A DNA stretch of 64,000 nucleotides from Owenia fusiformis (GCA_903813345.2 CAIIXF020000001.1:22568001-22632000); one strand, 5' to 3'; shown: positions 25,053-63,709, numbered from the stretch's first letter. Translations and numbers: made by a program. The notes: generated from the sequence alone by a model not told the origin.

Positions 25053-25420
25053 TAGACTCCAGATGAAAATCTGGAGTCTATTGCTTTCGTCAGTTTTCTT
25101 TATTATTAGACTCCAGATGTCAATCTGGAGTCTATTGTTTTTGCCAGTATTCTTATTCTTCTTCTTATTCTTATTAGACTCCAGATGTCAATCTGGAGTC
25201 TATTGTTTTTGCCAGTATTCTTCTTATTATTAGACTCCAGATGTCAATCTGGAGTCTATTGTTTTTGCCAGTATTCTTCTTCTTCTTCTTCTTCTTCTTA
25301 TTAGACTCCAGATTTCATCTGGAGTCTATTGCTTTTGCCAGTTTTCTTATTATTAGACTCCAGATTGAAAATCTGGAGTCTATTGTTTTTGCCAGTATTC
25401 TTCTTCTTCTTCTTATTATT
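25053..25420 (+). repeat. Stack of six consecutive element 5' heads
   Basis: AGACTCCAGAT starts at 25054, 25108, 25176, 25232, 25303 and 25355, separated only by TTA/TTC microsatellite. Confidence 0.95.
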
Positions 25421-27168
25421 TTTCTTTAAGAGTTTTTTCAATAACTATAAGGTATCCAGTAAAGACCATTATACAGTTCATTTAGGTTCAGTATCTAGTT
25501 GGTGGGAAATTGGGTCAAATTTTTATCTAGGTCAAAGGTCAAGAACTAGGTCAAATCCAGTACTTTGTCACTTTTTTCGATTTTCTCGGTCGTCCTTCAA
25601 TATTTTTGATCCGGGTTTTTTTCATTGTGTTCCTCATAAAAAAGTAGAAAATCTAGGGTCGATTTAGTTTTTTAATATCTCAAACCAATTTCGAGATATC
25701 AGTGTCCGAAAACGAGGTCCAAAAAAAGTTCTCCGAATCCAATGTCCAGGATATCAGTCTTATAGGAGATTTTCTCAGGATTCCGAATCTGAAAACCAAA
25801 TTTCGATTTGACTTCCGGTTCAGAAGTTATGGCGTTTTGAAAATTCAAAAATCGCTAAATTTGGTACCCCATGTTAATTCAATGGGAAAAAATATTTTTT
25901 TGAAGTGTAAAATACGAGATACAGACTAAGCACAGCTAAACATAATGGAAGCCCATAAAAGAAAGGGACCTCAAAACCTTCTTTTCATAAAAATTTGGAC
26001 ACCAAAATGCCTAGGTCAAAATCTAGGTCAAATTCAAAGTTTTTCCTTATTTTTGCGATTCTGACACTACAGATTAATTATATTCTTCAAAATTTTGTAT
26101 ACATGTAGCCAAGAGTGTGCTAATAGTGTTAGCCTTTTGCCGTCAGAAAGTATTATGCCCCACTTTTGAGATATGGTGTCCGAAAAGTAGGTCAAAATAA
26201 AAAAATTCTCCAAATTTAACGTTTGAGTTATGAATTAAGTATAGAATTTTCTCAGAAATCCGAATCTGCAAATCAAAATTCGATCCGACTTCCTGTTCGG
26301 AAGTTATGACATTTTGAAAGCTCAAAAATCGCTAAATTTGGTGCCCCATGTTATGTCAATGGGAAAAAAGATTTTTTGAAGTGTAAAATTCGAGATATAG
26401 ACTAAGTACAGCTTAAAATAATGAAAGCCTATGAAAGAAAGGGACCTCGAAGGCTACCTAACTTCAAAATTTGGACACCAAAATCCCCAGGTCAAAATCT
26501 AGGTCAAATTCATAGTTTTTCCTTATTTTTGCGATTCTGACACTATGTTTAAATGATTTGCTTCAAAATTTTGTATACAGGTAGGAAAAAGTGTGCTAAT
26601 AGTGTTAGCCTTTTGCCGTCATAAAGTATTCCTACCCACTTTTGAGATATGGTGTCCGAAAAGTAGGTCAAAATAAAAAGTTCTCCAAATTTAGCATATG
26701 AGTTATGAATTAAGGGTAGAATTTTCTCAGGAATCCGAGTCTGCAAACCAAATTTCGATCCGACATCCGATTCGAAAGTTATGGCGTTTTGAAATTTCGA
26801 GAAAAATCGATCTGATGGTATCCTGATAGAAAGTCAAGAATAGAGAAGAAAATATTGAAAAATGCATCCATCCTTCCTTTGTGATCCTATCGTATCCTTC
26901 TTATCTACCTTTCCTTCATATCCCCTCCTTCCTATCCTTCCTATTCTATTCCTTCTTCATATTCTATTCTATCATTCTTTCCTATTCTATCCTATCGTTC
27001 CCTCCTATTCTAGCCTATCCTTCCTTCCTTTTTCATCCATCCATCCATCCATCTTTTTCTGGATGACTCAGCTTATTTTGGATGACTCGGCTTATTCTGG
27101 ATGACTCGGCCAAAAAAAGTCTAGATCTGGAGTCTGAAATTGAACTTTGTTCAATTTCCAAAGTCTAG
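25354..27168 (+). mobile_element. Intact HINE-like copy
   Basis: Head, body with ~476-bp internal repeats, CCTAT-rich block, and tail ending CTAG at 27168. Confidence 0.85.
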
Positions 27169-27175
27169 TTATTAT

Positions 27176-27222
27176 TAGACTCCAGATTGAAAATCTGGAG
27201 TCTATTGTTTTCGTCAGTTTTC

Positions 27223-27255
<33 letters not shown>

Positions 27256-28650
27256 CAGGCACGTTTTCTCAATAACCATAGGGTCTTCAGTAAAGTCAAT
27301 CGGTTGGTCAATTTAGGTTCAGAATCTAGTTCCTCGGAAATTGGGTCAAATTTTTATCTAGGTCAAAGGTCAAGAACTAGGTCAAATCCAGTACTTTGTC
27401 ACTTTTTTCGATTTTCTCGGTCGTCCTTCAATATTTTCGATCCGGGTTTTTTTCATTGTGTTCCTTATAAAAAAGTAGGAAACCTAGGGTCGATTTAGTT
27501 TTTTGATATCTCAAACCGATTTCGAGGTATCAGTGTCCGAAAACGAGGTCCAAAAAAAGTTCTCCGAATCAAATGTCCAGGATATCAATCTTATAGGAAA
27601 TTTTCCCAGGGTTCCGAATCAGAAAACGGAATTTCGATCCGACTACCGGTTCGGAAGTTATGGCGTTTTGAAAACTCAAAAATCGCTAAATTTGGTGCCC
27701 ATGTTAAGTCAATGGGAAAAAATATTTTTTTGAAGTGAAAAATACGGAATAAAGACTGAGTTCAGCTTCATATAATCAAAGCCTTTAAAAGAAGGGGACC
27801 TCAAAAGCCATCTAGCTTTAAAATTTGGACACCGAAATGCCTAGGTCAAAATCTAGGTCAAATTCATAGGTTTTCCTTATTTTTTCGATTCTGACACTAC
27901 ACTCTAATTATATTCTTCGAAATTGTGTATACATGTAGCCAAGAATATGCTTATAGTGTTAGCCTTTTGCCGCCAGAAAGTATTTTGACCCACTTTTGAG
28001 ATATGGTGTCCGAAAAGTAGGTCAAAATAAAAAGTTCTCCAAATTTAATATATGAGTTATGAATTAAGGGTACAATTCTGTCAGGAATCCGAATCTGCAA
28101 ACCAAATTTCGATCCGACTTCCGGTTCGGAAGTTATGGCGTGTCCGAAAAGTAGGTCAAAATAAAAAATCTCCAAATTTAACGTATGAGTTATGAATTAG
28201 GGGTAGAATTTTGTCAGGAATCCGAATCTTTCAATCGAATTTCGATCCGACTTCCGGTTCGGAAGTTATGGTGTTTTGAAATTTCGGAAAATCGATCTGA
28301 TGGTATCCTGATAGAAAGTCAAGAGTAGAGAAGAATATGTTGAAAAATTCATCCATCCTTCCTATCTGATCTTATCCTATCCTTCCTTTCTATCATTTCT
28401 TCGTATCTTTTCCTTCCTATCCTTCTTATCCTATCCTTTCTTCCTATTCTATTCTATCCTATCCTTCTTTCTTATTCTATCCTATCGTTCTTTCCTATTC
28501 TATCCTATCCTACCTTCCTATTTTATTTATCCATCTCTTTCTAGATGACTCAGCTTATTCTGGATGACTCGGCTTATTCTGGATGACTCGGCTAAAAAAA
28601 GTCTAGATCTGGAGTCTGAAATTGAACTTCGTTCAATTTCCAAAATCTAG
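27176..28650 (+). mobile_element. Intact HINE-like copy (TTTTCGTCAG head subfamily)
   Basis: Head at 27177; tail CTAG at 28650. Confidence 0.85.
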
Positions 28651-31600
28651 TTATTATTATTATTATTATTTTTCTTTCTTTGCCAGTTTTCTCAGCTACT
28701 AGAAGGACTTACTAAAATCTGCTAACATAATCAGCTGGGTAATGAGACCTAGTTTCTGGGAAATTAGGTCAAATGTTTATCTAGGTCAAAGGTCAAGAAC
28801 TAGGTCAAATCGTGTGTTTTCACTATTTTACAAGTTTTCTCAGTCGTCCTTCGGTATTTTGGCTCCGGGTTTTTTTCATCATGTTCCTTAGAAAAAAAGC
28901 TAATTCCGTAAGGCAAATCGTTTTTTGATTACTCCTACCGATTTTGAGATATGGCGTCCGAAAAGTAGGTCAGAACATAAAAAGTTCTCCAAAGTCAACG
29001 TGTGAGTTATCAAATAAGTGTAGAATTATCTCAGGAATCCGAATCTGCAAACAAAAATCTGATCCGACATCCGGTTCGGAAGTTATAGCCTTTTGAAATC
29101 TCAAAAATCGCTAAATTTGGTGCCTATGTTAAGTCAATGGGAAAAAAGACTTTTTCGAAGTGTAAAATACAAGATGTAGACTGAGTACAGCTTAACATAA
29201 TGAATGCTTATAAAACAAGGGGACCTCAAAAGCTACATAGCTTCAAAATTTGGACACCAAAATGCCTAGGTCAAAATCTAGGTCAAATTCATAGTTTTTC
29301 CTTATTTTTGCGATTCTGGCACTACACTTTTAGGATTTGCTTCAAAATTTTGTATACAGGTAGCAAAGAGTGTGCTAATAGTGTTAGCCTTTTGCCGTCA
29401 AAAAGTATTTTGACCCACTTTTGAGATATGGTGTCCGTAAAGTAGGTCAAAATAAAAATTTCTCATAATTTAACTTATGAGTTATGAATTAAGGGTAGAA
29501 TTTTCTCAGGAATCCGAATCTGCAAACCAAATTTCAATCCGACTTTTCGTTGGGAAGTTATGGCGTTTTGAAAGCTCAAAAATCGCTAATTTTGGTGCCC
29601 CATGTTATGTCAATGAGAAAAAAGATTTTTTTGAAGTGTAAAATACCAGATAAAGACTGAGTACAGCTTAAGATTCTGAAAGTCTATAAAAGAAGGGGAC
29701 CTCGAAGGCTATCTAGCTTTAAAATTTGGACACCAAAATCCCTAGGTCAAAATCTAGGTCAAATACATAGTTTTTCCTTATTTTTGCGATTCTGGCACTA
29801 CACCTTTAGGATTTGCTTCAAAATTTTGTATACAGGTAGCAAAGAGTGGGCTTATAGTGTTAGCCTTTTGCCGTCAGAGAGTATTTTGACCCACTTTTGA
29901 GATATGGTGTCCGAAAAGTAGGTCAAAATAAAAGTTCTCCGAATTTAGCATATGAGTTATGAAATAAGGATAGAATTTTCTGAGGAATCTGAATCTGCAA
30001 ACCAAATTTCGATCCGACTTTCTGTTTGAAAGTTATAGCGTTTTGAAAGCTCAAAAATTGCTAAATTTGGTGCCCCATGTTATGTCAATAGGGAAAAAGA
30101 TTTTTTTGAAGTCTAAAAGACCAAATATAGACTGAGTACAGCTTAACATTCTGAAAGCCTTTAAAAGAAGGGGACTTCGAAGGCTATCTAGCTTTAAAAT
30201 TTGGACACCAAAATGCCAAGGTCAAAATCTAGGGCAAATTCATAATTTTCCTTATTTTTGCGATTCTGACATTACACTTTAATGATTTGCTTCGAAATTT
30301 TGTATACAGGTAGCAAAGAGTGTGCTTATAGTGATAGCCTTTTGCCGTCAGAAAGTATTTTGACCCACTTTTGAGATATGGTGTCCAAAAAGTAGGTCAA
30401 AATAAAAAAATCTCCAAATTTAATGTATGAGTTATGAATTAAGGGTAGAATTTTCTCAGGAGTCCGAATCTTTAAACCAAAATACAATCTAACTTCTGGT
30501 TAGATAGTTATAGCGGTTTGAAGTCTCGAAAAGTCGATATGATGATATCCCCATGTTAAGCCAATGGAGTCGAAGATAAAAAATGGAGAGTTGTCTAAAT
30601 GTCTAAATTCTAGCTGACTCGATCAGCTTATTCTGGATGACTCAGCTTACAAGTATTCTGGATGACTCAGCTTAAAAAAAGAATTAAATCTGGAGTCTTA
30701 AATTGAACTTGTTCAATTTACATGTCTAGTTATTATTTTTCTTTAAGAGTTTTTTCAATAACTATAAGGTATCCAGTAAAGACCATTATACAGTTCATTT
30801 AGGTTCAGTATCTAGTTGGTGGGAAATTGGGTCAAATTTTTATCTAGGTCAAAGGTCAAGAACTAGGTCAAATCCAGTACTTTGTCACTTTTTTCGATTT
30901 TCTCGGTCGTCCTTCAATATTTTTGATCCGGGTTTTTTTCATTGTGTTCCTCATAAAAAAGTAGAAAATCTAGCGTCGATTTAGTTTTTTGGTATCTCAA
31001 ACCAATTTCGAGATATCAGTGTCCGAAAACGAGGTCCAAAAAAAAATTCTCCGAATCCAATGTCCAGGATATCAGTATTATAGGAGATTTTCTCAGGATT
31101 CCGAATCTGAAAACCAAATTTCGATCTGACTTCCGGTTCAGAAGTTATGGCGTTTTGAAAATTCAAAAATCGCTAAATTTGGTACCCCATGTTAATTCAA
31201 TGGGAAAAAATATTTTTTTGAAGTGTAAAATACGAGATACAGACTAAGTACAGCTTAAAATAATGAAAGTCTATGAAAGAAGGGAACCTCGAAGGCTTCC
31301 TTATTTCAAAATTTGGACACCAAAATGCCTAGGTCAAAAATTGGTCAAATTCATAGTTTATCCTTATTTTTGCGATTCTGACACTACACTTTAATTATAT
31401 TCCTCGAAATTGTGTATACATGTAGCCAAGAGTGTGCTAATAGCGTTAGCCTTTTGCCGTCAGGAAGTATTTTGACCCACTTTTGAGATACGGTGTCCGA
31501 AAAATAGGTCAAAAAAAAAGTTCTCCAAATTTAACGTTTGAGTTATGAATTAAGAATAGAATTTTCTCAGAAATCCGAATCTGCCAACCAAATTTTGATA

Positions 31601-32255
31601 CGACTTCTGGTTCAGAAGTTATGGCGTGTCCGAAAAGTAGGTCAAAATAAAAATTCGCCAAATTTAATGTATGAGTTATGAATTAGAGGTAGAATTTTGT
31701 CAGGAATCCGAATCTGCAAATCAAATTTCGATTCGACTTCCGGTTCGGAAGTTATGGCGTTTTGAAATTTCAAGAAAAATCGATCTGATGGTATCCTGAT
31801 AGAAAGTCAAGAGTAGAGAAGAAAATATTGAAAAATGCATCCATCCTTCCTTTCTGATCCTATCCTATCCTTCCTATTTACCCTTGCTTCGTATCCTCTC
31901 CTTCCTATCCTTCCTATTCTATCCCTTCTTCCTATTCTATTCTATCCTTCTTTCCTATTCTATCCTATCGTTCCTTCCTATTCTATCCTATCCTTCCTTC
32001 CTTTTTCATCCATCCATCTTTTGCTGGATGACTTAGCTTATTTTGGATGACTTGGCTTATTCTGGATGACTCGGCTAAAAAAAGTCTAGATCTGGAGTCT
32101 GAAATTGAACTCGTTCAATTTCCAAAATCTAGTTATTAGACTCCAGATGTCAATCTGGAGTCTATTGTTTTTGCCAGTATTCTTCTTCTTCTTCTTCTTC
32201 TTATTAGACTCCAGATTGAAAATCTGGAGTCTATTGCTTTTGCCAGTTTTCTTAT

Positions 32256-33575
32256 TAGACTCCAGATTGAAAATCTGGAGTCTATTGTTTTTGCCAGTAT
32301 TCTTCTTATTATTCTTCTTTATTATTCTTTAGACGTTTTTTCTATAACTATAAGGTATCCAGTAAAGACCATTATACAGTTCATTTAGGTTGAGAATCTA
32401 GTTGGTGGGAAATTGGGTCAATTTTTTATCTAGGTCAAAGGTCAAGAACTAGGTCAAATCTTACATTTTCAACCTTCTGTCTATTATCTTCGTCGTTATT
32501 TATCGAAACGTCTTCCTATTTTTTTCATTATGTAGCTTAGAAACAGCCCTTTCACTAGTGTGCCATCAGATTTTTGATTACTGTTACTGATTTTGAGATA
32601 TGGCGTCCGGAAAGTAGGTCAGAACAAAAAGTTCTCCAAATTCAACATGTGAGTTATGAAATAAGTGTAGAATGATCTCAGGAATCCAAATCTGCAAATC
32701 AAATTTGGATCAGACTTCCGGTTCGGAAGTTATGGCGTTTTGAAAGCTCAAAAATCGCTAAATTTGGTGCCCATGTTAAGTCAATAGGAAAAAATGTTTT
32801 TTTTGAAGTGAAAAATACGAAATAAAGACTGAGTTCAGCTAAATATAATGAAAGCTTTTAAAAGAATGGGACCTCAAAAGCCATCTAGCTTCAAAATTTG
32901 GACACCAAAATGCCTAGGTCAAAATCTAGGTCAAATTCAAAGTTTTTCCTTAGTTTTGCGATTCTGACACTACACTTTAATTATATTCTTCGAAATTGTG
33001 TATACATGTAGCCAAGAGTGTGCTTATAGTGTTAGCCTTTTGCCGTCAGAGAGTATTTTGACCCACTTTTGAGATATGGTGTCCGAAAAGTAGGTGAAAA
33101 TAAAAAGTTCTCCAAATTTAACATATGAGTTATGAATTAAGGGTAGAATTTCCTCAGGATTCCGAGTCTGCAAATCAAATTTCGATCCAACTTCCGGTTT
33201 GAAAGTTATGGTGTTTTGAAATTTCGAGAAAAATCGATCTGATGGTATCCTGATAGAAAGTCAAGAGTAGAGAAGAAAATATTGGAAAATGCATCCATCC
33301 TTCTTTTGTGATCCTATCATATCCTTCCTATCTACCTTTTTGTATCCTCTCCTTCCTATTCTATCCCTTCTTCCTATTCTATTCTATCCTTCTTTCCTAT
33401 TCTATCCTATCGTTCCTTCCTATTCTAGCCTATCCTTCCTTCCTTTTTCATCCATCCATCTTTTTCTGGATGACTCAGCTTATTTTGGATGACTCGTCTT
33501 ATTCTGGATGACTCGGCTAAAAAAAAGTCTAGATCTGGAGTCTGAAATTGAACTTGTTCAATTTCCAAAGTCTAG
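32256..33575 (+). mobile_element. Intact HINE-like copy
   Basis: Innermost of three heads (32138, 32206, 32257); tail CTAG at 33575. Confidence 0.85.
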
Positions 33576-36500
33576 TTATTATTATTCTTTCTTTGCGCGT
33601 TTTCTCAGCAACTAGAGGGACTTTCTGAAATCTGCTTACATGGTTAAATAGGTAATGAGACCTAGTTTCTGGGAAATTAGGTCAAATTTTTATCTAGGTC
33701 AAAGGTCAAAATCTAGGTCAAATTATCATTTTGTCAATTATCTCTGTCATTTTTCAATATTTTTTCAAAATTTTTTTTTCAACGTGTAGCCAAGAAAAAG
33801 ACAATTCGACGGTGAGTAATCAATTTTTTGATTACTTTTACCGATTTTGAGATATTGCGTCCGGAAAGTAGGTCGAACGAAAAAGTTCTCCAAATTCAAC
33901 GTATGAGTTATGAAATAAGTGTAAAATTTCCTCAGGAATCTAAATCTGCAAACCAAATTTCGATCTGACTTCCGGTTCGGAAGCTATAGCGTTTTGAAAT
34001 TGCTAAATTTGGTGCCCATGTAAAGCCAATGGGAAAAAAGACTTTTTCGAAGTGTAAAATACAAGATATAGACTGAGCACAGCTTAACATAATGAATGCC
34101 CATAAAAGAAATGGACCTCAAAAGCTACCTAGCTTCAAAATTTGGACACCAAAATGCCTAGGTCAAAATCTAGGTCAAATTCATAGTTTTTCCTTATTTT
34201 TGCGAATCTGGCACTACACTTTTAGGATTTGCTTCAAAATTTTGTATACAGGTAGCAAAGAGTGTGCTAATAGTGAGAGCCTTTTGCCGTCAGAAAGTAT
34301 TTTGACCCACTTTTGAGATATGGTGTCCGTAAAGTAGGTCAAAATAAAAATTTCTCATAATTTAACTTATGAGTTATGAATTAAGGGTAGAATTTTCTCA
34401 GGAATCCGAATCTGCAAACCAAATTTCAATCCGACTTCCGGTTCGAAAGTTATGGCGTTTTGAAAGCTCAAAAATCACGAAATTTGTGTCCAATGTTAAG
34501 TCAATGGGAAAAAATATTTTTTTGAAGTGTAAAATACGAGATATAGACTGCGTATAGCTTAGCATAATGAATGCCTAAACAAGAAGGGGACCTCAAAAGC
34601 TACCTAGCATCAAAATTTGGACACCAAAATGCCTAGGTCAAAATCTAGGTCAAATTCATAGTTTTTCCTTATTTTTGCGATTCTGACACTACACTTTAAT
34701 AATTTACTTCAAAATTTTGTATACAGGTAGCAAAGAGTGTGCTAATAGTGTTAGCCTTTTGCCGTCAGAAAGTATTTTGACCCACTTTTGAGATATGGTG
34801 TCCGAAAAGTAGGTCAAAATAAAAAGTTCTCCAAATTTAACATGTGAGCCATGAATTAAGGGTAGAATTTTCCCAGGAATCCGAATGTGTAAACCAAATT
34901 TCAATCCGACTTTCGGTTCGGAAGTTATGGCGTTTTGAAAGCTCAAAAATCGCTAAATTTGGTGCCCTATGTTATGTCAATGAGAAAAAATATTTTTTTG
35001 AAGTGTAAAATACCAGATATAAACTGAGTACAGCTTAACATTCTGAAAGCCTATAAAAGAAGGAGACCTCGAAGGCTATCTAGCTTTAAAATTTGGACAC
35101 CAAAATGCCTAGGTCAAAATCTAGGTCAAATTCGTAGTTTTTCCTTATTTTTGCGATTCTGACATTACACTTTAATGATTTGCTTCGAAGTTTTGTATAC
35201 AGGTAGCAAAGAGTGGGCTTATAGTGTTAGCCTTCTGCCGTCTGAAAGTATTTTGACCCACTTTTGAGATATGGTGTCTGAAAAGTAGGTCAAAATAAAA
35301 AGTTCTCCAAATTTAACGTATGAGTTATGAATTAAGGGTAGAATTTTCTCAGGAATCAGAATCTTTAAACCAAATTTCGATCCAACTTCTGATTAGAAAG
35401 TTATAGCGGTTTGAAGTCTCGAAAAGTCGATATGATGATATCCCCATGTTAAGCCAATGGAGTCGAAGATAACATCGTCTAAATGTCTATATTCTAGCTG
35501 ACTCAGCTTATTCTGCATGACTCAGCTTACAGTTTTTCGGATGACTCACCTTAAAAAAAGTTTGAAATCTGGAGTCTTAAATTGAACTTGTTCAATTTAC
35601 ATGTCTAGTTATTATTATTATTTTTCTTTAAGAGTTTTTTCAATAACTATAAGGTATCCAGTAAAGACCATTATACAGTTCATTTAGGTTCAGTATCTAG
35701 TTGGTGGGAAATTGGGTCAAATTTTTATCTAGGTCAAAGGTCAAGAACTAGGTCAAATCTTACATTTTCAACCTTCTGTCTATTATCTTCGTCGTTATTT
35801 CTCGAAACTTCTTCATCTTTTTTTCATCCTGTAGCTTACAAACAGCCCTTTCATAAGTGTGCCATCCGTTTTTTGATTACTCTTACCGATTTTGAAATAT
35901 GGCGTCCGGAAAGTAGGTCACACCAAAACGTGCTCCAAATTCAATGTATGAGTTATGAATTAGGAGTAGAATTTTGTCAGGAATCCAAATTTGCAAACCA
36001 AATTTCGATCCGACTTCCGGTTCGGAAGTTATGGCGTTTTAAAAGCTCAAAAATCGCTAAATTTGGTGCCCATGTTAAGTCAATGGGAAAAAAGATTTTT
36101 TTGAAGTGAAAAATTCGAAATATAGACTGAGTTCAGCTTAATTTAATGAAAGCCTTCAAAAGAAGGGGACCTCAAAAGCCATCTAGCTTCAAAATTTGGA
36201 CACCAAAATGCCTAGGTCAAAATCTAGGTCAAATTCAAAGGTTTTCCTTATTTTTGCGATTCTGACACTACACTTCAATTATATTCTTTGAAATTGTGTA
36301 TACATGTAGCCAAGAGTGTGCTAATAGTGTAAGCCTTTTGCCGTCAGAAAGTATTTTGACCCACTTTTGAGATATGGTGTCCGAAAAGTAGGTCAAAATA
36401 AAAAGTTCTCCAAATTTAACATATGAGTTATGAATTAGGGGTAGAATTTTGTCAGGAATCCGAATCTGCAAACCAAATTTCGATCTGACTTCCGGTTCGG

Positions 36501-39061: not shown

Positions 39062-40425
39062 TAGACTCCAGATGTCAATCTGGAGTCTATTGTTTTTGCC
39101 AGTATTCTTCTTCTTCTTCTTCTTCTTATTATTTTTCTTTAAGAGTTTTTTCAATAACTATAAGGTATCCAGTAAAGACCATTATACAGTTCATTTAGGT
39201 TCAGTATCTAGTTGGTGGGAAATTGGGTCAAATTTTTATCTAGGTCAAAGGTCAAGAACTAGGTCAAATCTTACATTTTCAGTCTTCTGTCTATTATCTT
39301 CGTCGTTATTTCTCGAAACGTCTTCTTCTTTTTTTTCATCCTGTAGCTTACAAACAGCCCTTTCATAAGTGTGCCATCCGTTTAATGATTACTCTTACCG
39401 ATTTTGAAATATGGCGTCCGGAAAGTAGGTCACACCAAAACGTGCCCATGTTAAGTCAATGGGAAAAAAGATTTTTTTGAAGTGTAAAATTCGAAATATA
39501 GACTGAGTTCAGCTTAATTTAATGAAAGCTCTCAAAAGAAGGGGACCTCAAAAGCCATCTAGCTTCAAAATTTGGACACCAAAATGCCTAGGTCAAAATC
39601 TAGGTCAAATTCAAAGGTTTTCCTTATTTTGGCGATTCTGACACTACACTTCAATTATATTCTTCAAAATTGTGTATACATGTAGCCAAGAGTGTGCTTA
39701 TAGTGTTAGCCTTTTGCCGTCAGAAAGTAATTTGACCCACTTTTGAGATATGGTGTCCGAAAAGTAGGTCAAAATAAAAAATTCTCAAAATTAAATGTAT
39801 GAGTTATGAATTAGGAGTAGAATTTTGTCAGGAATCCGAATCTGCAAACTAAATTTCGATCCGACTTCCGGTTCGGAAGTTATGGCGTGTCCAAAAAGTA
39901 GGTCAAAATAAAAAGTTTCCAAATTTAACGTATGAGTTATGAATTAGGGGTAGAATTTTGTCAGGAATCCGAATCTGCAAACCAAATTGCGATCCGACTT
40001 CCGGTTCGGAAGTGATAGCGTTTTGAAATTTCGAGAAAAATCGATCTGATGATATCCTGATAGAAAGTCAAGGATAGCAAAGAAAATATTGAAAAATCCA
40101 TCCATCATTCCTACCCTATCTGATCCTATCCTATCTTATCCTTCCAATCTATACTTCTTTCATATTTTTTACCCTATCCTCCATATCCTATCCTTTCTTC
40201 CTATTCTATCCTATCCTTCTTTTCTATTCTATCCTATCGTTCCTTCCTATTCTATCCTATTCTTCCTTCCTATTCAATCCGCCCATCAATCTTTTTCTGG
40301 ATGACTCAGCTTATTTTTGATGACTCAGCTTATTCTGGATGACTCGGCTTATTCTGGATGACTGGGCTTAAAAAAGTCTAGATCTGGAGTCTGAAATTGA
40401 ACTTCGTTCAATTTCCAAAGTCTAG
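39062..40425 (+). mobile_element. HINE-like copy with an internal deletion
   Basis: Innermost of four heads (38911, 38960, 39013, 39063). It is a near copy of 22117-23615 with a GTGC-microhomology deletion at ~39445. Confidence 0.85.
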
Positions 40426-43559: not shown

Positions 43560-43569
43560 TTATTATTAT

Positions 43570-50700: not shown

Positions 50701-53700
50701 GTCAGAATCGGAGGAAAACTAGCTGGTCGGAAAGACAGTTTTCCGAGCATTAAAAAAACAGTGAACCAAATTTCAATCCGACCATTAGTTATCGAGATAT
50801 ACGCGTTTGAAGTTCGCGTACGGGCCACCGTTGCCGTATATCTAGACGACACCTGGTATACACGATGTATACGTATCTCTGCGAACAACAGACATTTGAA
50901 AGAAAATAGGCCCGGACGATGACTAGAGCATTTCAAAAACAACGTTTCCCTTCGTCCAACTAACGATTGCGGAATGTAGAACGATACGTACGCTGCTCGA
51001 ATCTACGTCGAAAGCCCTATATGGACGTCTGGAAGGCCTGTTTTTTGAAGGACTATTTTTTGACCTCGACGGATCCGCGAAGCACGAGCCAGGCATTCTC
51101 CCCAACTACCTCCCTAGATTCCCCGACCTTTAATCGACCATTATAGGCCCTCAGAGCGTCCGTAGAGCCATTTCCCTCTATACGCGTATGGGCAAATCCT
51201 ATTATGATTTTTGCTTTCGTATGTGCAAAAAGCAAAAATCCTCCTCACACACGTTCTCACCAACGAGAGATATTTGGACAAATCTACTCATACACGTTGT
51301 TAGGGGGCTAGGCGTAGTTGCTCGGAAATTAGGTCAAATCCTTATCTGGGTCAAAGGTCGAAATCTAGGTCGAAATCTGCATTTCCGCTATTTTGGCCTC
51401 TCGAGCCTCCTTAAGAAGTCAGAATCGGAGGAAAACTAGCTGGTCGGAAAGACAGTTTTCCGAGCATTAAAAAAACAGTGAACCAAATTTCAATCCGACC
51501 ATTAGTTATCGAGATATACGCGTTTGAAGTTCGCGTACGGGCCACCGTTGCCGTATATCTAGACGACACCTGGTATACACGATGTATACGTATCTCTGCG
51601 AACAACAGACATTTGAAAGAAAATAGGCCCGGACGATGACTAGAGCATTTCAAAAACAACGTTTCCCTTCGTCCAACTAACGATTGCGGAATGTAGAACG
51701 ATACGTACGCTGCTCGAATCTACGTCGAAAGCCCTATATGGACGTCTGGAAGGCCTGTTTTTTGAAGGACTATTTTTTGACCTCGACGGATCCGCGAAGC
51801 ACGAGCCAGGCATTCTCCCCAACTACCTCCCTAGATTCCCCGACCTTTAATCGACCATTATAGGCCCTCAGAGCGTCCGTAGAGCCATTTCCCTCTATAC
51901 GCGTATGGGCAAATCCTATTATGATTTTTGCTTTCGTATGTGCAAAAAGCAAAAATCCTCCTCACACACGTTCTCACCAACGAGAGATATTTGGACAAAT
52001 CTACTCATACACGTTGTTAGGGGGCTAGGCGTAGTTGCTCGGAAATTAGGTCAAATCCTTATCTGGGTCAAAGGTCGAAATCTAGGTCGAAATCTGCATT
52101 TCCGCTATTTTGGCCTCTCGAGCCTCCTTAAGAAGTCAGAATCGGAGGAAAACTAGCTGGTCGGAAAGACAGTTTTCCGAGCATTAAAAAAACAGTGAAC
52201 CAAATTTCAATCCGACCATTAGTTATCGAGATATACGCGTTTGAAGTTCGCGTACGGGCCACCGTTGCCGTATATCTAGACGACACCTGGTATACACGAT
52301 GTATACGTATCTCTGCGAACAACAGACATTTGAAAGAAAATAGGCCCGGACGATGACTAGAGCATTTCAAAAACAACGTTTCCCTTCGTCCAACTAACGA
52401 TTGCGGAATGTAGAACGATACGTACGCTGCTCGAATCTACGTCGAAAGCCCTATATGGACGTCTGGAAGGCCTGTTTTTTGAAGGACTATTTTTTGACCT
52501 CGACGGATCCGCGAAGCACGAGCCAGGCATTCTCCCCAACTACCTCCCTAGATTCCCCGACCTTTAATCGACCATTATAGGCCCTCAGAGCGTCCGTAGA
52601 GCCATTTCCCTCTATACGCGTATGGGCAAATCCTATTATGATTTTTGCTTTCGTATGTGCAAAAAGCAAAAATCCTCCTCACACACGTTCTCACCAACGA
52701 GAGATATTTGGACAAATCTACTCATACACGTTGTTAGGGGGCTAGGCGTAGTTGCTCGGAAATTAGGTCAAATCCTTATCTGGGTCAAAGGTCGAAATCT
52801 AGGTCGAAATCTGCATTTCCGCTATTTTGGCCTCTCGAGCCTCCTTAAGAAGTCAGAATCGGAGGAAAACTAGCTGGTCGGAAAGACAGTTTTCCGAGCA
52901 TTAAAAAAACAGTGAACCAAATTTCAATCCGACCATTAGTTATCGAGATATACGCGTTTGAAGTTCGCGTACGGGCCACCGTTGCCGTATATCTAGACGA
53001 CACCTGGTATACACGATGTATACGTATCTCTGCGAACAACAGACATTTGAAAGAAAATAGGCCCGGACGATGACTAGAGCATTTCAAAAACAACGTTTCC
53101 CTTCGTCCAACTAACGATTGCGGAATGTAGAACGATACGTACGCTGCTCGAATCTACGTCGAAAGCCCTATATGGACGTCTGGAAGGCCTGTTTTTTGAA
53201 GGACTATTTTTTGACCTCGACGGATCCGCGAAGCACGAGCCAGGCATTCTCCCCAACTACCTCCCTAGATTCCCCGACCTTTAATCGACCATTATAGGCC
53301 CTCAGAGCGTCCGTAGAGCCATTTCCCTCTATACGCGTATGGGCAAATCCTATTATGATTTTTGCTTTCGTATGTGCAAAAAGCAAAAATCCTCCTCACA
53401 CACGTTCTCACCAACGAGAGATATTTGGACAAATCTACTCATACACGTTGTTAGGGGGCTAGGCGTAGTTGCTCGGAAATTAGGTCAAATCCTTATCTGG
53501 GTCAAAGGTCGAAATCTAGGTCGAAATCTGCATTTCCGCTATTTTGGCCTCTCGAGCCTCCTTAAGAAGTCAGAATCGGAGGAAAACTAGCTGGTCGGAA
53601 AGACAGTTTTCCGAGCATTAAAAAAACAGTGAACCAAATTTCAATCCGACCATTAGTTATCGAGATATACGCGTTTGAAGTTCGCGTACGGGCCACCGTT

Positions 53701-54789
53701 GCCGTATATCTAGACGACACCTGGTATACACGATGTATACGTATCTCTGCGAACAACAGACATTTGAAAGAAAATAGGCCCGGACGATGACTAGAGCATT
53801 TCAAAAACAACGTTTCCCTTCGTCCAACTAACGATTGCGGAATGTAGAACGATACGTACGCTGCTCGAATCTACGTCGAAAGCCCTATATGGACGTCTGG
53901 AAGGCCTGTTTTTTGAAGGACTATTTTTTGACCTCGACGGATCCGCGAAGCACGAGCCAGGCATTCTCCCCAACTACCTCCCTAGATTCCCCGACCTTTA
54001 ATCGACCATTATAGGCCCTCAGAGCGTCCGTAGAGCCATTTCCCTCTATACGCGTATGGGCAAATCCTATTATGATTTTTGCTTTCGTATGTGCAAAAAG
54101 CAAAAATCCTCCTCACACACGTTCTCACCAACGAGAGATATTTGGACAAATCTACTCATACACGTTGTTAGGGGGCTAGGCGTAGTTGCTCGGAAATTAG
54201 GTCAAATCCTTATCTGGGTCAAAGGTCGAAATCTAGGTCGAAATCTGCATTTCCGCTATTTTGGCCTCTCGAGCCTCCTTAAGAAGTCAGAATCGGAGGA
54301 AAACTAGCTGGTCGGAAAGACAGTTTTCCGAGCATTAAAAAAACAGTGAACCAAATTTCAATCCGACCATTAGTTATCGAGATATACGCGTTTGAAGTTC
54401 GCGTACGGGCCACCGTTGCCGTATATCTAGACGACACCTGGTATACACGATGTATACGTATCTCTGCGAACAACAGACATTTGAAAGAAAATAGGCCCGG
54501 ACGATGACTAGAGCATTTCAAAAACAACGTTTCCCTTCGTCCAACTAACGATTGCGGAATGTAGAACGATACGTACGCTGCTCGAATCTACGTCGAAAGC
54601 CCTATATGGACGTCTGGAAGGCCTGTTTTTTGAAGGACTATTTTTTGACCTCGACGGATCCGCGAAGCACGAGCCAGGCATTCTCCCCAACTACCTCCCT
54701 AGATTCCCCGACCTTTAATCGACCATTATAGGCCCTCAGAGCGTCCGTAGAGCCATTTCCCTCTATACGCGTATGGGCAAATCCTATTA
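44752..54789 (+). repeat. Head-to-tail tandem array, 717-bp unit x exactly 14
   Basis: The unit runs TGATTTTTGCTTTCG...GGGCAAATCCTATTA, and 14 x 717 = 10038 bp. The ORF track repeats identically every 717 bp, and I saw no differences between copies by eye. Confidence 0.97.
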
Positions 54790-54908
54790 TTAGACTCCAG
54801 ATTGAAAATCTGGAGTCTATTGTTTTTGCCTGTTTTCTTTATTATTATTATTATTATTAGACTCCAGATGAAAATCTGGAGTCTATTGCTTTTGCCAGTT
54901 TTCTTTAT

Positions 54909-56385
54909 TAGACTCCAGATTGAAAATCTGGAGTCTATTGTTTTTGCCAGTATTCTTCTTCTTATTATTATTATTATTATTATTTTTCTTTAAGAGTTTT
55001 TTCAATAACTATAAGGTATCCAGTAAAGACCATTATACAGTTCATTTAGGTTCAGTATCTAGTTGGTGGGAAATTGGGTCAAATTTTTATCTAGGTCAAA
55101 GGTCAAGAATTAGGTCAAATCCAGTACTTTGTCACTTTTTTCGATTTTCTCGGTCGTCCTTCAATATTTTTGATCCGGTTTTTTTCATTGTGTTCCTCAT
55201 AAAAAAGTAGGAAATCTAGGGTCGATTTAGTTTTTTGATATCTCAAACCGATTTTGAGATATGGCGTCCAGAAAGTAGGTCACACCAAAAAGTGCTCCAA
55301 ATTCAATGTATGAGTTATGAATTAGGGGTAGAATTTTGTCAGGAATCGGAATCTACAAACCAAAGTTCGATCCGACTTCTGGTTCGGAAGTTATGGCGTT
55401 TTGAAAACTCAAAAATCGCTAAATTTTGTGCCCATGTTAAGTCAATGGGAAAAAGATATTTTTTGAAGTGAAAAATACGAAATATAGACTGAGTTCAGCT
55501 TAATTTAATGAAAGCCTTCAAAAGAAGGGGACCTCAAAAGCCATCTAGCTTCAGAATTTGGACACCAAAATTCCTAGGTCAAAATCTAGGTCAAATTCAA
55601 AGTTTTTTCTTATTTTTGCGATTCTGACACTACACTTTAATTATATTCTTCGAAATTGTGTATACACGTAGTCAAGAGTGTGCTAATAACGTTAGCCTTT
55701 TGCCGTCATAAAGAATTTTGACCCACTTTTGAGATATGTTGTCCGAAAAGTAGGTCAAAATAAAAAGTTCTCCAAATTTAACGTTTGAGTTATGAATTAA
55801 GAATAGAATTTTCTCAGAAATCCGAATCTGCAAACCAAATTTCGATCCGACTTCCGGTTCCGAAGTTATGGCGTGTCCAAAAAGTAGGTCAAAATAAAAA
55901 TTCGCCAAATTTAATGTATGAGTTATGAATTAGGGGTAGAATTTTGTCAGGAATCCGAATCTTTAAATCAAATTTCGATCCGACTTCCGGTTCGGAAGTT
56001 ATGGCGTTTTGAAATTTCGGAAAATCGATCTGATGGTATCCTGATAGAAAGTCAAGAGTAGAGAAGAAAATATTGAAAAATTCATCCATCCTTCATATCT
56101 GATCCTATCATATCCTATCCTTCCTTCGTATCCTTTCCTTCCTATCCTTTCTATCCTCTCCTATCATATCCTTTCTTCCTATTTTGTTCTATCCTATCCT
56201 TCTTTCTTATTCTATCCTATCGTTCCTTCCCATTCTATCCTATCCTACCTTCCTGTTTTATCCATCCATCTTATTCTGGATGACTCAGCTTATTCTGGAT
56301 GACTCGGCTTATTTTAGATGACTGGGCTTAAAAAAGTCTGGATCTGGAGTCTGAAATTGAACTTCGTTCAATTTCCCAAGTCTAG
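54909..56385 (+). mobile_element. Intact HINE-like copy
   Basis: Innermost of three heads (54792, 54859, 54910); tail CTAG at 56385. Confidence 0.85.
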
Positions 56386-59300
56386 TTATTATTCTTTCAG
56401 AATCTTCCTCCTTCCCAGATTTCTCACCAACTAGAAGAGCTTACTTTAAGCTGCTTACATGATTAACTAGGGAATGTATCTGGGATGATGGGAAATTAGG
56501 TCAAATTTTTATCTAGGTCAAAGGTCAAGAACTAGGTCAAATCCAGTACTTTGTCACTTTTTCCCATTATCTCGGTCGTCCTTCAATATTTTTGATCTTG
56601 GTTTTTTTCATTGTGTTCCTCATAAAAAAGTAGAAAACCTAGGGTCGATTTAGTTTTTTGGTATCTCAAACCGATTTCGAGATATCAGTGTCCGAAAACG
56701 AGGTTCAAAAAAAATTTCACCGAATCCAATGTCCGGGATATCAGTCTTATAGGAAATCTTCTCAGGATTCCGAATCTGAAAACCAAATTTCGATCTGACT
56801 TCCGGTTGAGAAGTTATGGCGTTTTGAAAATTCAAAATCGCTAAATTTGGTGCCCCATGTTAATTCAATGGGAAAAAATATTTTTTTGAAGTGTAAAATA
56901 CGAGATATAGACTAAGCACAGCTAAACATAATGGAAGCCCATAAAAGAAAGGGACCATAAGACCTTCTTTTCATAAAAATTTGGACACCAAAATGCCTAG
57001 TTCAAAATCTAGGTCAAATTCAAAGTTTTTCCTTATTTTTGCGATTTTGACACTACAGATTAATTATATTCTTCGAAAATTTGTATACATGTAGCCAAGA
57101 GTGTGCTAATAGTGTTAGCCTTTTGCCGTCAGAAAGTATTTTGACCCACTTTTGAGATATGGTGTCCGAAAAGTAGGTCAAACTAAAAAATTCTCCAAAT
57201 TTAACGTATGAGTTATGAATTAGGGGTAGAATTTTATCAGGAATCTGAATCTGCAAACCAAATTTTGATTCGAACTCCTGTTCGGAAGTTATGGCGTTTT
57301 GAAAGCTCAAAAATCGCTAAATTTGCTGCCCCATGTTATGTCAATGGGAAAAAAGATTTTTTTGAAGTGTAAAATACGAGATATAAACTGAGTACAGCTT
57401 AATATAATGAAAGCCTATGAAAGAAGGGGACCTCGAAGGCTACTTAGCTTCAAAATTTGGACACCAAAATCCCTAGGTTAAAATCTAGGTCAAATTCATA
57501 GTTTTTCCTTATTTTTGCGATTCTGACACTATATTCAAATGATTTGCTTTAAAATTTTGTATACAGGTAGCAAAGAGTATGCTCATAGTGTTAGCCTTTT
57601 GCCGTCAGAAAGTATTTTGACCCACTTTTGAGATATGGTGTCCGAAAAGTAGGTCAAAATAAAAACTATCCAAATTTAATGTGTGAGTTATGAATTAAAG
57701 GTAAAACTTTCTCAGGAATCCAAATCTGCAAACCAAATTTCGATCCGACTTCTTGTTCTGAAGTTATGGCGTTTTGAAATCTCAAAAATCGCTAAATTTG
57801 GTGCCCCATGTTAAATCAATGGGACCGAATAATTTTTTGAAGTGTAAAAATACGAGATATAGAATGAGTACAGCTAAACATAATGAAAGCCCATAAAAGA
57901 AGGGGACCTCAAAAGCTACTTTCCTTCAAAATTTGGACACCAAAATACCTAGTTCAAAATCTAGGTCAAATTCTTAGTTTTTTCTTATTGTTGCAATTCG
58001 GACACTACACTTCAATGATATTCTTCGAAATTTTGTATACATGTAGCAAAGAGTGTGCTCATAATGTTAACTTGTTGCCGTCAAGAAGTGTTTTGACCCA
58101 CTTTTGAGATATGGTGATCGAAATGTATGTCAAAATAAAAAGTTCTCCAAATTTAACGTATGAGTTATGAATTAGGGGTAGAATTTCCTAAGGAATCCGG
58201 ATCTGAAATTAAAATTGCGATCCGACCCCCGGTTAAGATTCTAAGCCATTTTGAAGTTTGAAATTCGCACTTGCCAGTATTCACGATGCAGATAGATCAA
58301 ATATACTTTCAAAAATTCCTACATACCCTACTTTACCTCCCTACCTACTCAGCTACTTATTTGACTACTTACTCAATTGCTTAATTAGTTATTACTTACT
58401 TAGCTACTTACTCAGCTACTAACTCAGGTACTTACTCAGCTACTTACTCAGCTACCTACTCAGCTTTTTACCCAGTTACTTACTCAGCTACTTACTCAAC
58501 TACTACTAAGGTACTTACTCAGCTAATTACTCAGTTAATTACTCAGCTCTTTACTGATCTATCTAGGTAAAATAAATCTGGAGTCTTAAATTGAACTTGT
58601 TCAATTTCACAAATCTAGTTATTCTTATTTTTCTTTTTGAGTTTTCTCAATAACTATAAGGTATCCAGTAAAGACCATAATACAGTTTGTTTAGGTTCAG
58701 TCTCTAGTTGGTGGGAAATTGGGTCAAATTTTTATCTAGGTCAAAGGTCAAGAACTAGGTCAAATCCAGTACTTTGTCACTTTTTTTGATTTTCTCGGTC
58801 GTTCTTCAATATTTTCGATCCGTTTTTTTTTCATTGTGTTCCTTATAAAAAAGTAGGAAACCTAGGATCGATTTAGTTTTTTGATATCTCAAACCGATTT
58901 CGAGATATCAGTGTCCGAAAACGAGGTCCAAAAAAAAGTTCTCCGAATCAAATGTCCAGGATATTGGTCTTATAGGAAATTTTCTCAGGATTCCGAATCT
59001 GAAAACGAAATTTGGATCGGACTTCCGGTTCTGAAGTTATGGCGTTTTGAAAGCTCAAAAATCGCTAAATTTGGAGCCCATGTTAAGTCAATGGGAAAAA
59101 AGATTTTATTGAAGTGAAAAATACGAAATATAGACTGAGTTCAGCTAAATATAATGAAAGCCTTTAAAAGAATGGGACCTCAAAAGCCATCTAGCTTTAA
59201 AATTTGGACACCAAAATGCCTAGGTCAAAATCTAGGTCAAATTCAAAGTTTTTCCTTATTTTTGCGATTCTGACACTACAGATTGATTATATTCTTCAAA

Positions 59301-61387
59301 ATTTTGTATACATGTAGCCAAGAGTGTGCTTATAGTGTTAGCATTTTGCCGTCAGAAAGTATTTTGCCCCACTTTTGAGATATGGTGTCCGAAAAGTAGG
59401 TCAAAATAAAAAGTTCTCCAAATTTGACGTTTGAGTTATGAATTAAGAATAGAATTTTCTCAGAAATCCGAATCTGCAAACCAAATTTCGATCCGACTTC
59501 CGGTTCCGAAGTAATGGTGTGTCCAAAAAGTAGGTCAAAATAAAAATTCGCCAAATTTAATGTATGAGTTATGAATTAGGGGTAGAATTTTGTCAGGAAT
59601 CCGAATCTTTAAATCAAATTTATATCCGACTTCCGGTTCGGAAGTTATGGCGTTTTGAAGTTTCGGAAAATCGATCTGATGGTATCCTGATAGAAAGTCA
59701 AGAGTAGAGAAGAAAATATTGAAAAATTCATCCATCCGTCCAATCTGATCCTATCCTATCCTTCCTATCTATCCTTCATTCATATCCTTTCCTTCCTATC
59801 CTTCCTATCCTCTCCTACCATATCCTTTCTTCCTATTCTGTCCTATCCTATCCTTCTTTCTTATTCTATCCTATCGATCCTTCCCATTCTATTCTATCCT
59901 ACCTTCCTATGTTATCCATCCATCTTATTCTGGATGACTCGGCTTATTTAAGATGACTGGGCTTAAAAAAGTCTAGATCTGGAGTCTGAAATTGAACTTC
60001 GTTCAATTTCCAAAGTCTAGTTATTTTTCTTTAAGAGTTTTTTCAATAACTATAAGGTATCCAGTAAAGACCATTATACAGTTCATTTAGGTTCAGTATC
60101 TAGTTGGTGGGAAATTGGGTCAAATTTTTATCTAGGTCAAAGGTCAAGAACTAGGTCAAATCTTACATTTTCAGTCTTCTGTCTATTATCTTTGTCGTTA
60201 TTTCTCGAAACGTCTTCTTCTTTTTTCCATCCTGTAGCTTACAAACAGCCCTTTCATAAGTGTGCCATCCGTTTTTTGATTACTCTTACTGATTTTGAAA
60301 TATGGCGTCCGGAAAGTAGGTCACACCAAAACTTGCTCCAAATTCAATGTATGAGTTATGAATTAGGAGTACAATTTTGTCAGGAATCCGAATCTGCAAA
60401 CCAAATTTCAATCAGATTTCCGGTTCGGAAGTTAAGGCGTTTTAAAAGCTCAAAATTTGGTGCCCATGTTAAGTCAATGCGAAAAAAGATTTTTTTGAAG
60501 TGAAAAATTCTAAATATAGACTGAGTTCAGCTTAATTTAATGAAAGCTTTCAAAAGAAGGGGACCTCAAAAGCCATCTAGCTTCAAAATTTGGACACCAA
60601 AATGCCTAGGTCAAAATCTAGGTCAAATTCAAAGGTTTTCCTTATTTTTGCGATTCTGACACTACACTTCAATTATATTCTTCGAAATTGTGTATACATG
60701 TAGCCAAGAGTCTGCTAATAGTGTTAGCCTTTTGCCGTCAGAAAGTATTTTGACCCACTTTTGAGATATGGTGTCCGAAAAGTAGGTCAAAATAAAAAGT
60801 TCTCCAAATTTAAGGTTTGAGTTATGAATTAGGGGTAGAATTTTGTCAGGAATCCGAATCTGCAAACCAAATTTCGATCCGACTTACAGTTCCGAAGTTA
60901 TGGCGTGTCCAAAAAGTAGGTCAAAATAAAAATTCGCCAAATTTAACGTATGAGTTATGAATTAGGGGTAGAATTTTGTCAGGAATCCGAATCTTTAAAT
61001 CAAATTTAGATCCGACTTCCGGTTCGGAAGTTATGGCGATTTGAAATTTCGGAAAATCGATCTGATGGTATCCTGATAGAAAGTCAAGAGTAGAGAAGAA
61101 AATATTGAAAAATTCATCCATCCTTCCTATCTGATCCTATCCTATCCTTCCTATCTATCCTTCCTTCGTATCCTTTCCTTCCTATCCTTCCTATCCTCTC
61201 CTATCATATCCTTCTTCCTATTCTGTTCTATCCTATCCTTCTTTCTTTTTCTATCCTATCGTTCCTTCCCATTCTATCCTATCCTACCTTCCTATTTAAA
61301 CCATCCATCTTATTCTGGATGACTCAGCTTATTCTGGATGACTCGGCTTATTTTAGATGACTGGGCTTAAAAAAGTCTAGTTATTAT

Positions 61388-63709
61388 TAGACTCCAGATT
61401 TCATCTGGAGTCTATTGCTTTTGCCAGTTTTCTTATTATTATTCTTTCTTTCTTTCTTTCTGAACACTTTTTCTCAGCAACTAGAAGGACTTACTTAAAT
61501 CTGCTAACATAGTCAACTAGGTAATGAAACCTAGTTTCTGGGAAATTAGGTCAAATGTTTATCTAGGTCAAAGGTCAAGAACTAGGTCAAATCGTTGGTT
61601 TTCACTATTTTACAAGTTTTCTCAGTCGTCCTTTGGTATTTTTGCTCCGGGTTTTTTTCATCATGTTCCTTAGAAAAAAAGCTAATTCCGAAAGGCAAAT
61701 CGTTTTTTGATTACTCTTACAGATTTTGAGAAATGACGTCCGAAAAGTAGGTCAGAACATAAAAAGTTCTCCAAATTCAACGTGCAAATTATAAAATAAG
61801 TGTAGAATTATCTCAGGAATCCGAATCTGCAAACAAAATTTCGATCCGACTTCCGGTTAGGAAGTTATAGCATTTTGAAATCTCAAAATCGCTAAATTTG
61901 GTGCCCCATGTTAAGTCAATGGGGAAAAAGACTTCTTCGAAGTGTAAAATGCGAGATATAGACTGAGTACAGCTTAACATAATGAAAGCCTATAAAAGAA
62001 GGGGACCTCTAAGGCTATCTAGCTTTAAAATTTGGACAGCAAAATGCCTAGGTCAAAATCTAGGTCAAATTTATAGTTTTTTCTTATTTTTGCGATTCTG
62101 ACACTACACTTTAATAATTTGCTTCAGAATTTTGTATACAGGTAGCCAAGAGTGTGCTAATAGTGTTAGCCTTTTGCCGTCAGAAAGTATTTCTACCCAC
62201 TTTTGAGATATGGTGTCCGAAAAGTAGGTCAAAATGAAAAATTCTCCAAATTTAACATATGAGCTATGGAATAAGGGTAGAATTTCCTCAGGAATCCGAA
62301 TCTGCAAACCATATTTCGATCCGACTTCCCGTTTGAAAGTTATGGCGTTTTGAAATTTCGAGAAAAATCAATCTGATGTTATCCTGATAGAAAGTCAAGG
62401 AAAAAAGATTTTTTTGAAGTGTAAAATACGAGATATAGATTGAGTACAGCTTAAGATAATGAATTCCTATAAAAGAAGGGGACCTCAAAAGCTACCTAGT
62501 TTCAATATTTGGACACCAAAATGCCTAGGTCAAAATCTAGGTCAAATTCATAGTTTTTCCTTATTTTTGCGATTCTGACACTACACTTTTAGGATTTGCT
62601 TCAAAATTTTGTATACAGGTAGCAAAGAGTGTGTTTATAGTGTTAGCCTTTTGCCGTCAGAGAGTATTTTGACCCACTTTTGAGATATGGTGTCCGAAAA
62701 GTAGGTCAAAATAAAAAATTCTCGAAATTTAACATATGAGTTATGAATTAAGAGTAGAATTTTCTCAGGAATCCGAATCTGCAAACCAAATTTCGATCCG
62801 ACTTCCGGTTCTAAAGTTATGGCGTGTCCGAAAAGTAGGTCAAAATAACAATTCGCCAAATTTAACGTATGAGTTATGAATTAGGGGTAAAATTTTGTCA
62901 GGAATCCGAATCTTTAAATCAAATTTCGATCTGACTTCCGGTTTGGAAGTTATGGCGTTTTGAAATTTCGGAAAATCGATCTGATGGTATCCTGATAGAA
63001 AGTCAAGGAAAAAAGATTTTTTTGAAGTGTAAAATACGAGATATAGATTGAGTACAGCTTAAGATAATGAATTCCTATAAAAGATGGGGACCTCAAAAGC
63101 TACCTAGTTTCAATATTTGGACACCAAAATGCCTAGGTCAAAATCTAGGTCAAATTCATAGTTTTTCCTTATTTTTGCGATTCTTGCACTACACTTTTAG
63201 GATTTGCTTCAACATTTTGTATACAGGTAGCAAAGAGTGTGCTAATAGTGAGAGCCTTTTGCCGTCAGAAAGTATTTTGACCCACTTTTGAGATTTGGTG
63301 TCCGTAAAGTAGGTCAAAATAAAAAGTTCTCATAATTTAACTTATGAGTTATGAATTAAGGGTAGAATTTTCTCAGGAATCCAAATCTGCAAACCAAATT
63401 TCAATCCGACTTCCGGTCAAAAATTCCTACTTACCTACCTACTTACCTACTCGGCTACCTACTTAGCTACCTACTCAGCTACCTACTCAGCTACTTACTC
63501 AGCTACCTACTCAGCTACTTACTCAGCTACCTACTCAGCTACTTACTCAGCTACCTACTCAGCTGCTTACTCAGCTACCTACTCAGCTACTTACTCAATT
63601 ACTTAATCATCTACTTACACAGCTTCCTACTCAGTTACTTACTCAGCTCTTTACTCAAGTAAATCAATCTGGAGTCTTAAATTGAACTTTGTTCAATTTA
63701 CCAATCTAG
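61388..63709 (+). mobile_element. Intact HINE-like copy (GATTTCATC head subfamily)
   Basis: Head at 61389; 12-bp CTACTCAG repeats at ~63430-63655; tail CTAG at 63709. Confidence 0.85.

Follow-up and report, generated by a model that had tools for sequence, protein, structure and literature searches.

The window analysed here, a stretch of 64,000 nucleotides of Owenia fusiformis DNA, carries from position 22004 onwards a cluster that, read from its sequence, most likely consists of ca. 25 small non-coding rolling-circle transposons, each inserted just behind the start of the previous copy. Nested self-insertion by an HLE2 (Helentron, Helitron2) family, with later editing in a minority of pairs, is the explanation that we favour for this stack, with a probability of about 85%. 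The cluster ends ca. 11.1 kb past the window, at extended coordinate 75127 (C1 ~22643127), and is followed by unique DNA. Parsing of the window together with this extension gave 24 heads (one with a substitution) and 25 bodies, 20 of the bodies lying inside the window and the extension contributing five bodies and zero heads.

Layout of the cluster and class of its elements

Each head is composed of TT, an 11-bp subterminal inverted repeat (subTIR), a loop of 3-5 nt, the inverted repeat of the subTIR, ATTG, a 12-nt suffix that marks the subfamily and a TTA/TTC microsatellite. Bodies begin with a variable 5' stretch that is followed by a conserved GGTCAAAGGTC region, repeats of 476 and 133 bp, a pyrimidine-rich repeat, the 3' subTIR, a palindrome and CTAG. 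A genome-wide search gave 2,668 exact matches to the head pattern and 0 to its control, which indicates at least 2,668 heads. All of the heads and bodies named in an earlier note on this DNA were found in place; the parts of the cluster are as follows.

22004 to 64000 in the window, plus strand: nested cluster of putative non-autonomous Helentron-like elements, strict stack depth up to 9
22006 to 22160, plus strand: head stack 1, with heads 22008 (GAAA loop, outermost), 22062 and 22118
22160 to 25045, plus strand: bodies 1 and 2, TTAAGAG type, body 2 being 23616-25045
25001 to 25045, plus strand: example of a 3' end, with subTIR ATCTGGAGTCT, palindrome AAATTGAAC-TTC-GTTCAATTT and terminal CTAG, then TT
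25052 to 25400, plus strand: head stack 2, with six heads (25054, 25108, 25176, 25232, 25303 and 25355)
Within 25400 to 32132, plus strand: body 3, then a contiguous element with head 27177
28651 to 30729, plus strand: body, stack partner of head 25303
30730 to 32132, plus strand: body, stack partner of head 25232
32136 to 38905, plus strand: head stack 3 (32138, 32206 and 32257) and four bodies ending at 33575, 35608, 37160 and 38905
From 38909, plus strand: head stack 4, with heads 38911, 38960, 39013 and 39063, and bodies to 40425 and 41725
Part of 38909 to 44751, plus strand: heads 41731 and 41799, a body to 43559 and the contiguous element 43571-44751
44752 to 54789, plus strand: 14 identical head-to-tail copies of a 717-bp element, second family
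54790 to 61382, plus strand: head stack 5 (54792, 54859 and 54910) and four bodies ending at 56385, 58618, 60020 and ~61382
Part of 61387 to 64000, plus strand: contiguous element with head 61389, to 63709
63710 onward, plus strand: body without a fitting head

The tail of body 60021 (61370-61382) has neither the subTIR nor the hairpin/palindrome, as if a deletion had taken place between two AAAGTCTAG repeats. Elsewhere in the window, a single open frame of 1269 aa at 2065-5874 contains 14 TPR_10 repeats encoded by a 129-bp tandem array, its N-terminal half having no Pfam match; an inverted pair with 88% identity occupies 16448-16719 and 19227-19509, and a separate high-copy repeat is found upstream of the cluster at 20600-21030.

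For the assignment of the elements, features of HINEs and of non-autonomous HLE2 elements were taken from parts of PMC4067079 and PMC11417382. Subterminal inverted repeats, which measure 11-18 bp in HINEs, occur at both ends (AGACTCCAGAT in the head and ATCTGGAGTCT ca. 44 nt from the 3' end), and the 5' subTIR forms a hairpin with its near inverted repeat (12-bp stem, -11.4 kcal/mol, z=-8 for head 25303). Past the 3' subTIR, where a palindrome is expected 8-35 nt from the end, AAATTGAAC-TTC-GTTCAATTT lies 11 nt before the end. The TTA/TTC runs supply the microsatellite and the 476- and 133-bp repeats the central tandem repeats, and the cluster has only three stop-to-stop frames of 160-179 aa. 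Judged on these features, we class the family of the cluster as non-autonomous Helentron-like (HINE/HLE2). A canonical Helitron (HLE1, with a 5' TC, A/T insertion and no inverted repeats) was rejected on account of the TT-AG starts, the TT flanks and the presence of subTIRs, the CTAG end and the 3' hairpin being the only HLE1-like features. As for structured RNA, neither the window nor the 717-bp unit gave an Rfam match.

A block of AGGTCA direct repeats that includes TAGGTCAAAGGTCA is conserved in every body (e.g. 22275-22320), in the 717-bp unit and in locus L286; it looks similar to nuclear-receptor DR1/RORE sites.

Head-body linkage and the order of the stack

The association between heads and bodies was learned from 149 contiguous head-body pairs at 145 loci, all outside the window. 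Overall, 280 loci gathered by place and by head type were merged into 153 stretches, and a stretch of 78 nt from the 5' part of each body was used for clustering, blind to the heads. The training pairs are solo copies and innermost nested copies selected by head type, and a pair was called concordant when its combination had been seen at least once in training, which is lenient. Linkage was strong, with 2.39 bits of mutual information vs. a maximum of 1.08 in 2000 shuffles; when one locus at a time was left out, 130 of the 149 contiguous pairs were seen in the remainder, which sets the ceiling of the test.

Strict stack parsing recovered the last-in-first-out pairings proposed in the earlier note. 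Nine of the 11 separated pairs in the window are known from elsewhere vs. a permutation mean of 4.2 (p=0.002 on the count, 0.0006 on the log-likelihood), so that the concordance it had claimed beats chance; all three separated pairs of head stack 3 are concordant. First-in-first-out pairing was rejected, as it gave 2/11 in the window and 14/34 in other clusters. Outside the window, in 18 clusters with separated pairs, most of the large clusters being covered short of their ends, 24 of 34 pairs were concordant vs. 16.2 when permuted (p=0.0005), several two-head clusters among them allowing a single possible pairing and therefore adding no power. Combinations unseen in training make up the discordant pairs, two of 11 in the window and 10 of 34 outside. 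For one locus (L207) a prediction written before the sequence was fetched was right for both pairs in range; for another (L124), in which seven heads close with only three bodies, a prediction written beforehand was right for one pair of two.

With the extension included, the strict parse gave 11 concordant pairs out of 15 (p=0.004) and one body left over. When heads are counted up and bodies down along the stack, the tally first drops below zero at the last body, a situation that by our own arithmetic from the ballot theorem arises in 1 of 49 random orders. When body 63710 was dropped post hoc, 13 of 15 pairs were concordant and the three outermost open heads (25108, 25054 and 22008) were met, in reverse order, by bodies of a fitting type at a distance of 43-51 kb; the final two bodies beyond the window match the two outermost heads, 45-51 kb distant. 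For the last eight bodies, several parses with one orphan do about equally well (12 or 13 of 15, by hand), and thus no single parse is claimed.

These counts bear on a composite-copying scenario, in which a transposase would start at an outer head and run on until a tail, the first or a later one, stops it. Multi-head units would then spread as such, and few stacks would be a record of insertion on site. Such a route is drawn in Figure 7 of PMC5148889, in the part of that paper used here, and is in line with a locus that has two heads and one body (L004) and with clusters that have heads (L015, L124, L011) or bodies (L012, L014, L017, L040) in excess. As the main builder it is nonetheless improbable, since it presupposes nesting, does not predict reverse-order matching over 45-51 kb, and predicts imbalance as the rule, yet the window cluster stands at 24 to 25 and, among 13 multi-element clusters whose end was seen, seven are balanced, four off by one and two short of several bodies.

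Three of the individual pairings had been presented as diagnostic. In the first, the rare TTC-loop head at 25303 (74 copies of this type vs. 2,668 heads overall) is paired with body 28651-30729 and recurs directly on the same body type at 61389. The two bodies agree at 90% over 120 nt and 92% over 600 nt, and seven of the eight contiguous TTC-loop heads elsewhere sit on this body type or its sister type. The pair is compatible but not uniquely diagnostic because the body type more often carries a GAAA-loop head (7/12 contiguous copies). The second pairing, of head 39013 with the body to 41725, holds in that this body type has a GTAA head in five of eight contiguous copies; the copy at 27177, which had been placed in the same subfamily, has another 5' type and another loop, with 78% agreement over 120 nt and 94.5% over the whole body. 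Support for the third (head 54859 with the body to 58618) comes from 13 of 25 contiguous copies, and this body does start like the copy at 43571 (96.7% over 120 nt but 76% over 600 nt). The proposal that GTCA heads go with TTAAGAG-type bodies is borne out by five of the six separated pairs of that kind in the window.

A single exception had been reported, the last body, which indeed lacks a fit, but a second mismatch was overlooked, between head 54792 and body 58619-60020. The sole contiguous copy among 11 others of the latter body type has a GTCA head. The loss of a body near 61380, offered to explain the exception, goes in the wrong direction: bodies exceed heads by one beyond the window (25 vs. 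24), which means that a head is missing and not a body. The other ten of the 11 copies of the 58619 body type (L287-L297) are preceded by a tail and not by a head, suggesting an older, often interrupted subfamily.

Target site, neighbouring families and candidate partner

The 5' flank is TT at 122 of 122 first heads (93 TTATT, 19 TAATT) and the 3' flank is TT at 24 of 24 last tails (19 TTAT); these TT flanks come without a longer target duplication, as looked for in HINEs. Head-head spacers end in TTATT in 226 of 228 cases. The target motif, T(T/A)A^TT(A/G), is also carried in the elements' own 5' TTA/TTC microsatellite, an uninterrupted head spacer containing 2.9 motifs on average, and the empty site would read T(T/A)ATT(A/G)T. 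Two Ts are gained per insertion, ATTTTA occurring in only 1 of 159 uninterrupted spacers, and these would be either the element's own or a TT duplication. No reverse-strand element was found in the 153 merged loci. A public contig (run X3) covers 21852-21944, and its further 363 letters are not among the matches listed on the stack.

MITEs of the PIF/Harbinger type have a 3-bp TWA target duplication, insert in either orientation and possess true terminal inverted repeats. This class was rejected on the basis of unequal 5' and 3' flanks in four loci (L004, L023, L027 and L033) and of the fixed orientation; copies with a 5' TAATT have a 3' TTAT, so that the 3-bp duplication is absent.

We propose that non-autonomous HLE2 elements would be moved in trans, inserting in fixed orientation at T(T/A)A^TT(A/G), with about three such sites offered by each element in the microsatellite that directly follows its 5' hairpin. 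On landing at one of them, a new copy would split the resident into a head of 45-50 bp and a body of 1.2-2.9 kb, and repeated insertion would yield runs of heads, trailed by their bodies in the opposite order. The orphans and the mismatches seen in a minority of pairs may stem from recombination or gene conversion at a later stage, or from copies that span from an outer head to an inner tail, and the bracket order would be an order in time.

Among the first 100 heads listed on C1, 32 of the 77 that lie outside the window are within 100 bp of another head, and we estimate from motif density in 200 kb of flanking DNA that ca. 1-3% of target motifs are located behind heads. This excess of head-adjacent insertions could reflect active targeting, survival of harmless insertions or composite copying. 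A broader proposal, to which we give less than even odds, is that in this animal the 5' hairpin is followed, in several HLE2 families, by a target of their own to which they are actively steered, e.g. by a transposase bound at the resident hairpin/subTIR. They would thereby build shared, self-renewing landing pads of tens of kb, in which bracket order would directly record the order of subfamily activity.

Other families take part in the stacks. The 717-bp element has its own 5' hairpin and the shared GGTCAAAGGTC region, lacks a TTA run behind the hairpin and is found at tail-head junctions in the window and in three other loci (L069, L124 and L212). In these four places its first copy comes after the tail of the cluster family as CTAG-T, and in four of the six head stacks listed behind 717-bp copies the first head is of the TGAAA/TTTTTGCCTG type, which is that of the mismatched head 54792. 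Two more families, which have CTAG ends and TTA runs but whose 5' hairpins are unrelated, share the target site (L020, L031, L049, L124 and L199; L008 and L135). They build head stacks of their own and nest with the HINE family of the window, one bracketing it in L020 and L031 and the other lying behind its head in L008.

As for an autonomous partner, the genome has 63 matches to PF14214 (RepHel), many in frames longer than 2,500 aa (2,500-3,300 aa). Two loci were probed and contain DUF6570, Herpes_teg_N (below cut-off in one) or OTU domains, the first two being near-exclusive to HLE2 according to part of PMC11417382. Upstream of these two of the 63 loci (3.3 and 4.1 kb) the head of the cluster family is absent, the 5' end of the C5 element possibly lying beyond that range; in one of them a hairpin with this layout, but of different sequence, precedes the frame by 3.4 kb. 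We infer rolling-circle movement from structure, since the mobilising partner was not among the RepHel loci probed (2/63). A TTATT-A...T-ATTG hairpin and GGTCA-rich tandem repeats precede a long RepHel frame, itself with domains of HLE2 type, in L286 (690-740) and L283 (C6 ~5172.6-5179.6 kb); this hairpin may mark where an autonomous element of a different family starts.

Editing of the stack, precedents and significance

The earlier note had ascribed the stack to nested insertion by several subfamilies rather than to unequal crossing-over. The first part is well supported as the main builder; the exclusion is too strong because orphan heads and bodies occur and because two bodies are identical over 1430 bases. 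These are body 23616-25045 and the body at extended 67175-68606 (L001), 43.5 kb downstream, in which 1430 of 1430 aligned bases agree; the pair may result from conversion, a very recent local copy or assembly. Together with the imbalanced clusters, it indicates that conversion, unequal exchange or composite copying edit the stacks. Heads 22062 and 25176 have the same spacer.

Had slippage and unequal crossing-over instead multiplied the heads (as a minisatellite) and the bodies (as a satellite) locally and separately, such an identical pair would be expected, as would the six of 25 bodies with their nearest relative within the cluster and the orphan bodies that are often of the same type as the preceding body (L014, L017, L040). 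For the remaining 19 of 25, the nearest relative was found among 184 bodies outside the cluster, a result at odds with local amplification as the principal source; adjacent heads moreover belong to different genome-wide types, the stack order is significant and unrelated families are bracketed. We therefore consider this origin highly improbable, slippage and unequal crossing-over being likely secondary processes only.

Were the assembly wrong about the order, the 717-bp array or the pair of identical bodies, this would agree with the perfect identity of the 14 monomers and of two distant bodies, at a locus that short-read contigs are unable to span. The same head-body grammar is nevertheless present at more than 100 loci on many contigs, and misassembly would not create reverse-order matching of subfamilies, which leaves such an artefact a very slight probability, although assembly error may affect the copy number of the 717-bp array.

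Nested self-insertion of this kind can be set against four precedents, described here from parts of the cited papers. DINE-1/HINE non-autonomous Helentrons (Thomas, Vadnagara and Pritham 2014, PMC4067079) have in common with the Owenia elements the subTIRs, an inverted repeat pairing with the 5' subTIR, a microsatellite behind it, central repeats, a 3' palindrome, TT flanks and a non-coding nature, the comparison being one of layout and not of core sequence; head stacks and insertion into the own microsatellite are not described in the part used, and the Owenia target is wider than TT. In Fusarium oxysporum, self-insertion was proposed as the source of several short 5' ends in FoHeli (Helitron2; Chellapan et al. 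2016, PMC5148889), which likewise shows multiple short 5' termini and composite copies with two heads and one tail, the target of FoHeli1/2 being TNAT^A. That proposal drew on one nested case and on copies with multiple 5' ends, whereas in the Owenia stack the displaced bodies are present, depth reaches 9 and the pairing was tested statistically. Cg_HINE of Crassostrea gigas, also a lophotrochozoan host (Vojvoda Zeljko et al. 2020, PMC7492417), resembles the present family by an 11-12 bp subTIR, an inverted repeat 1-12 bp away, a microsatellite, central tandem repeats and a 3' palindrome, but its repeats are of a 140-180 bp class vs. 476 and 133 bp in Owenia; 'nested' and 'self' have 0 occurrences in the main text of that paper. 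Finally, Xenopus HelenXT233 (Li et al. 2024, HELIANO, PMC11417382) has two left termini, in direct repeat but not identical, each of them the mark of a subfamily, and HLE2 insertion between T and T; it differs in being an autonomous element with two heads, nested bodies not being described in the part used. Beyond these four, the literature covered returned no description of deep bracket-matched stacks, and the supplements of PMC5148889 and PMC11417382 may hold more nested cases.

The present finding is a deep, quantified variant of an already proposed behaviour and not a new kind of system, and new biochemistry is not indicated. A preprint (10.1101/158386) reportedly deals with tandem insertions. 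The presence of displaced bodies in the Owenia stack makes self-insertion pairing testable, unlike the earlier proposal based on copies with multiple 5' ends. As a caution, repeat annotation will break such stacks into a minisatellite and a satellite. If true, nested self-insertion would make the choice of target by HLE2 elements testable with one defined site and would provide a relative chronology of subfamilies. It would also explain the stacked termini and offer a route from dispersed elements to satellite-like arrays in which unequal exchange is not the first step.
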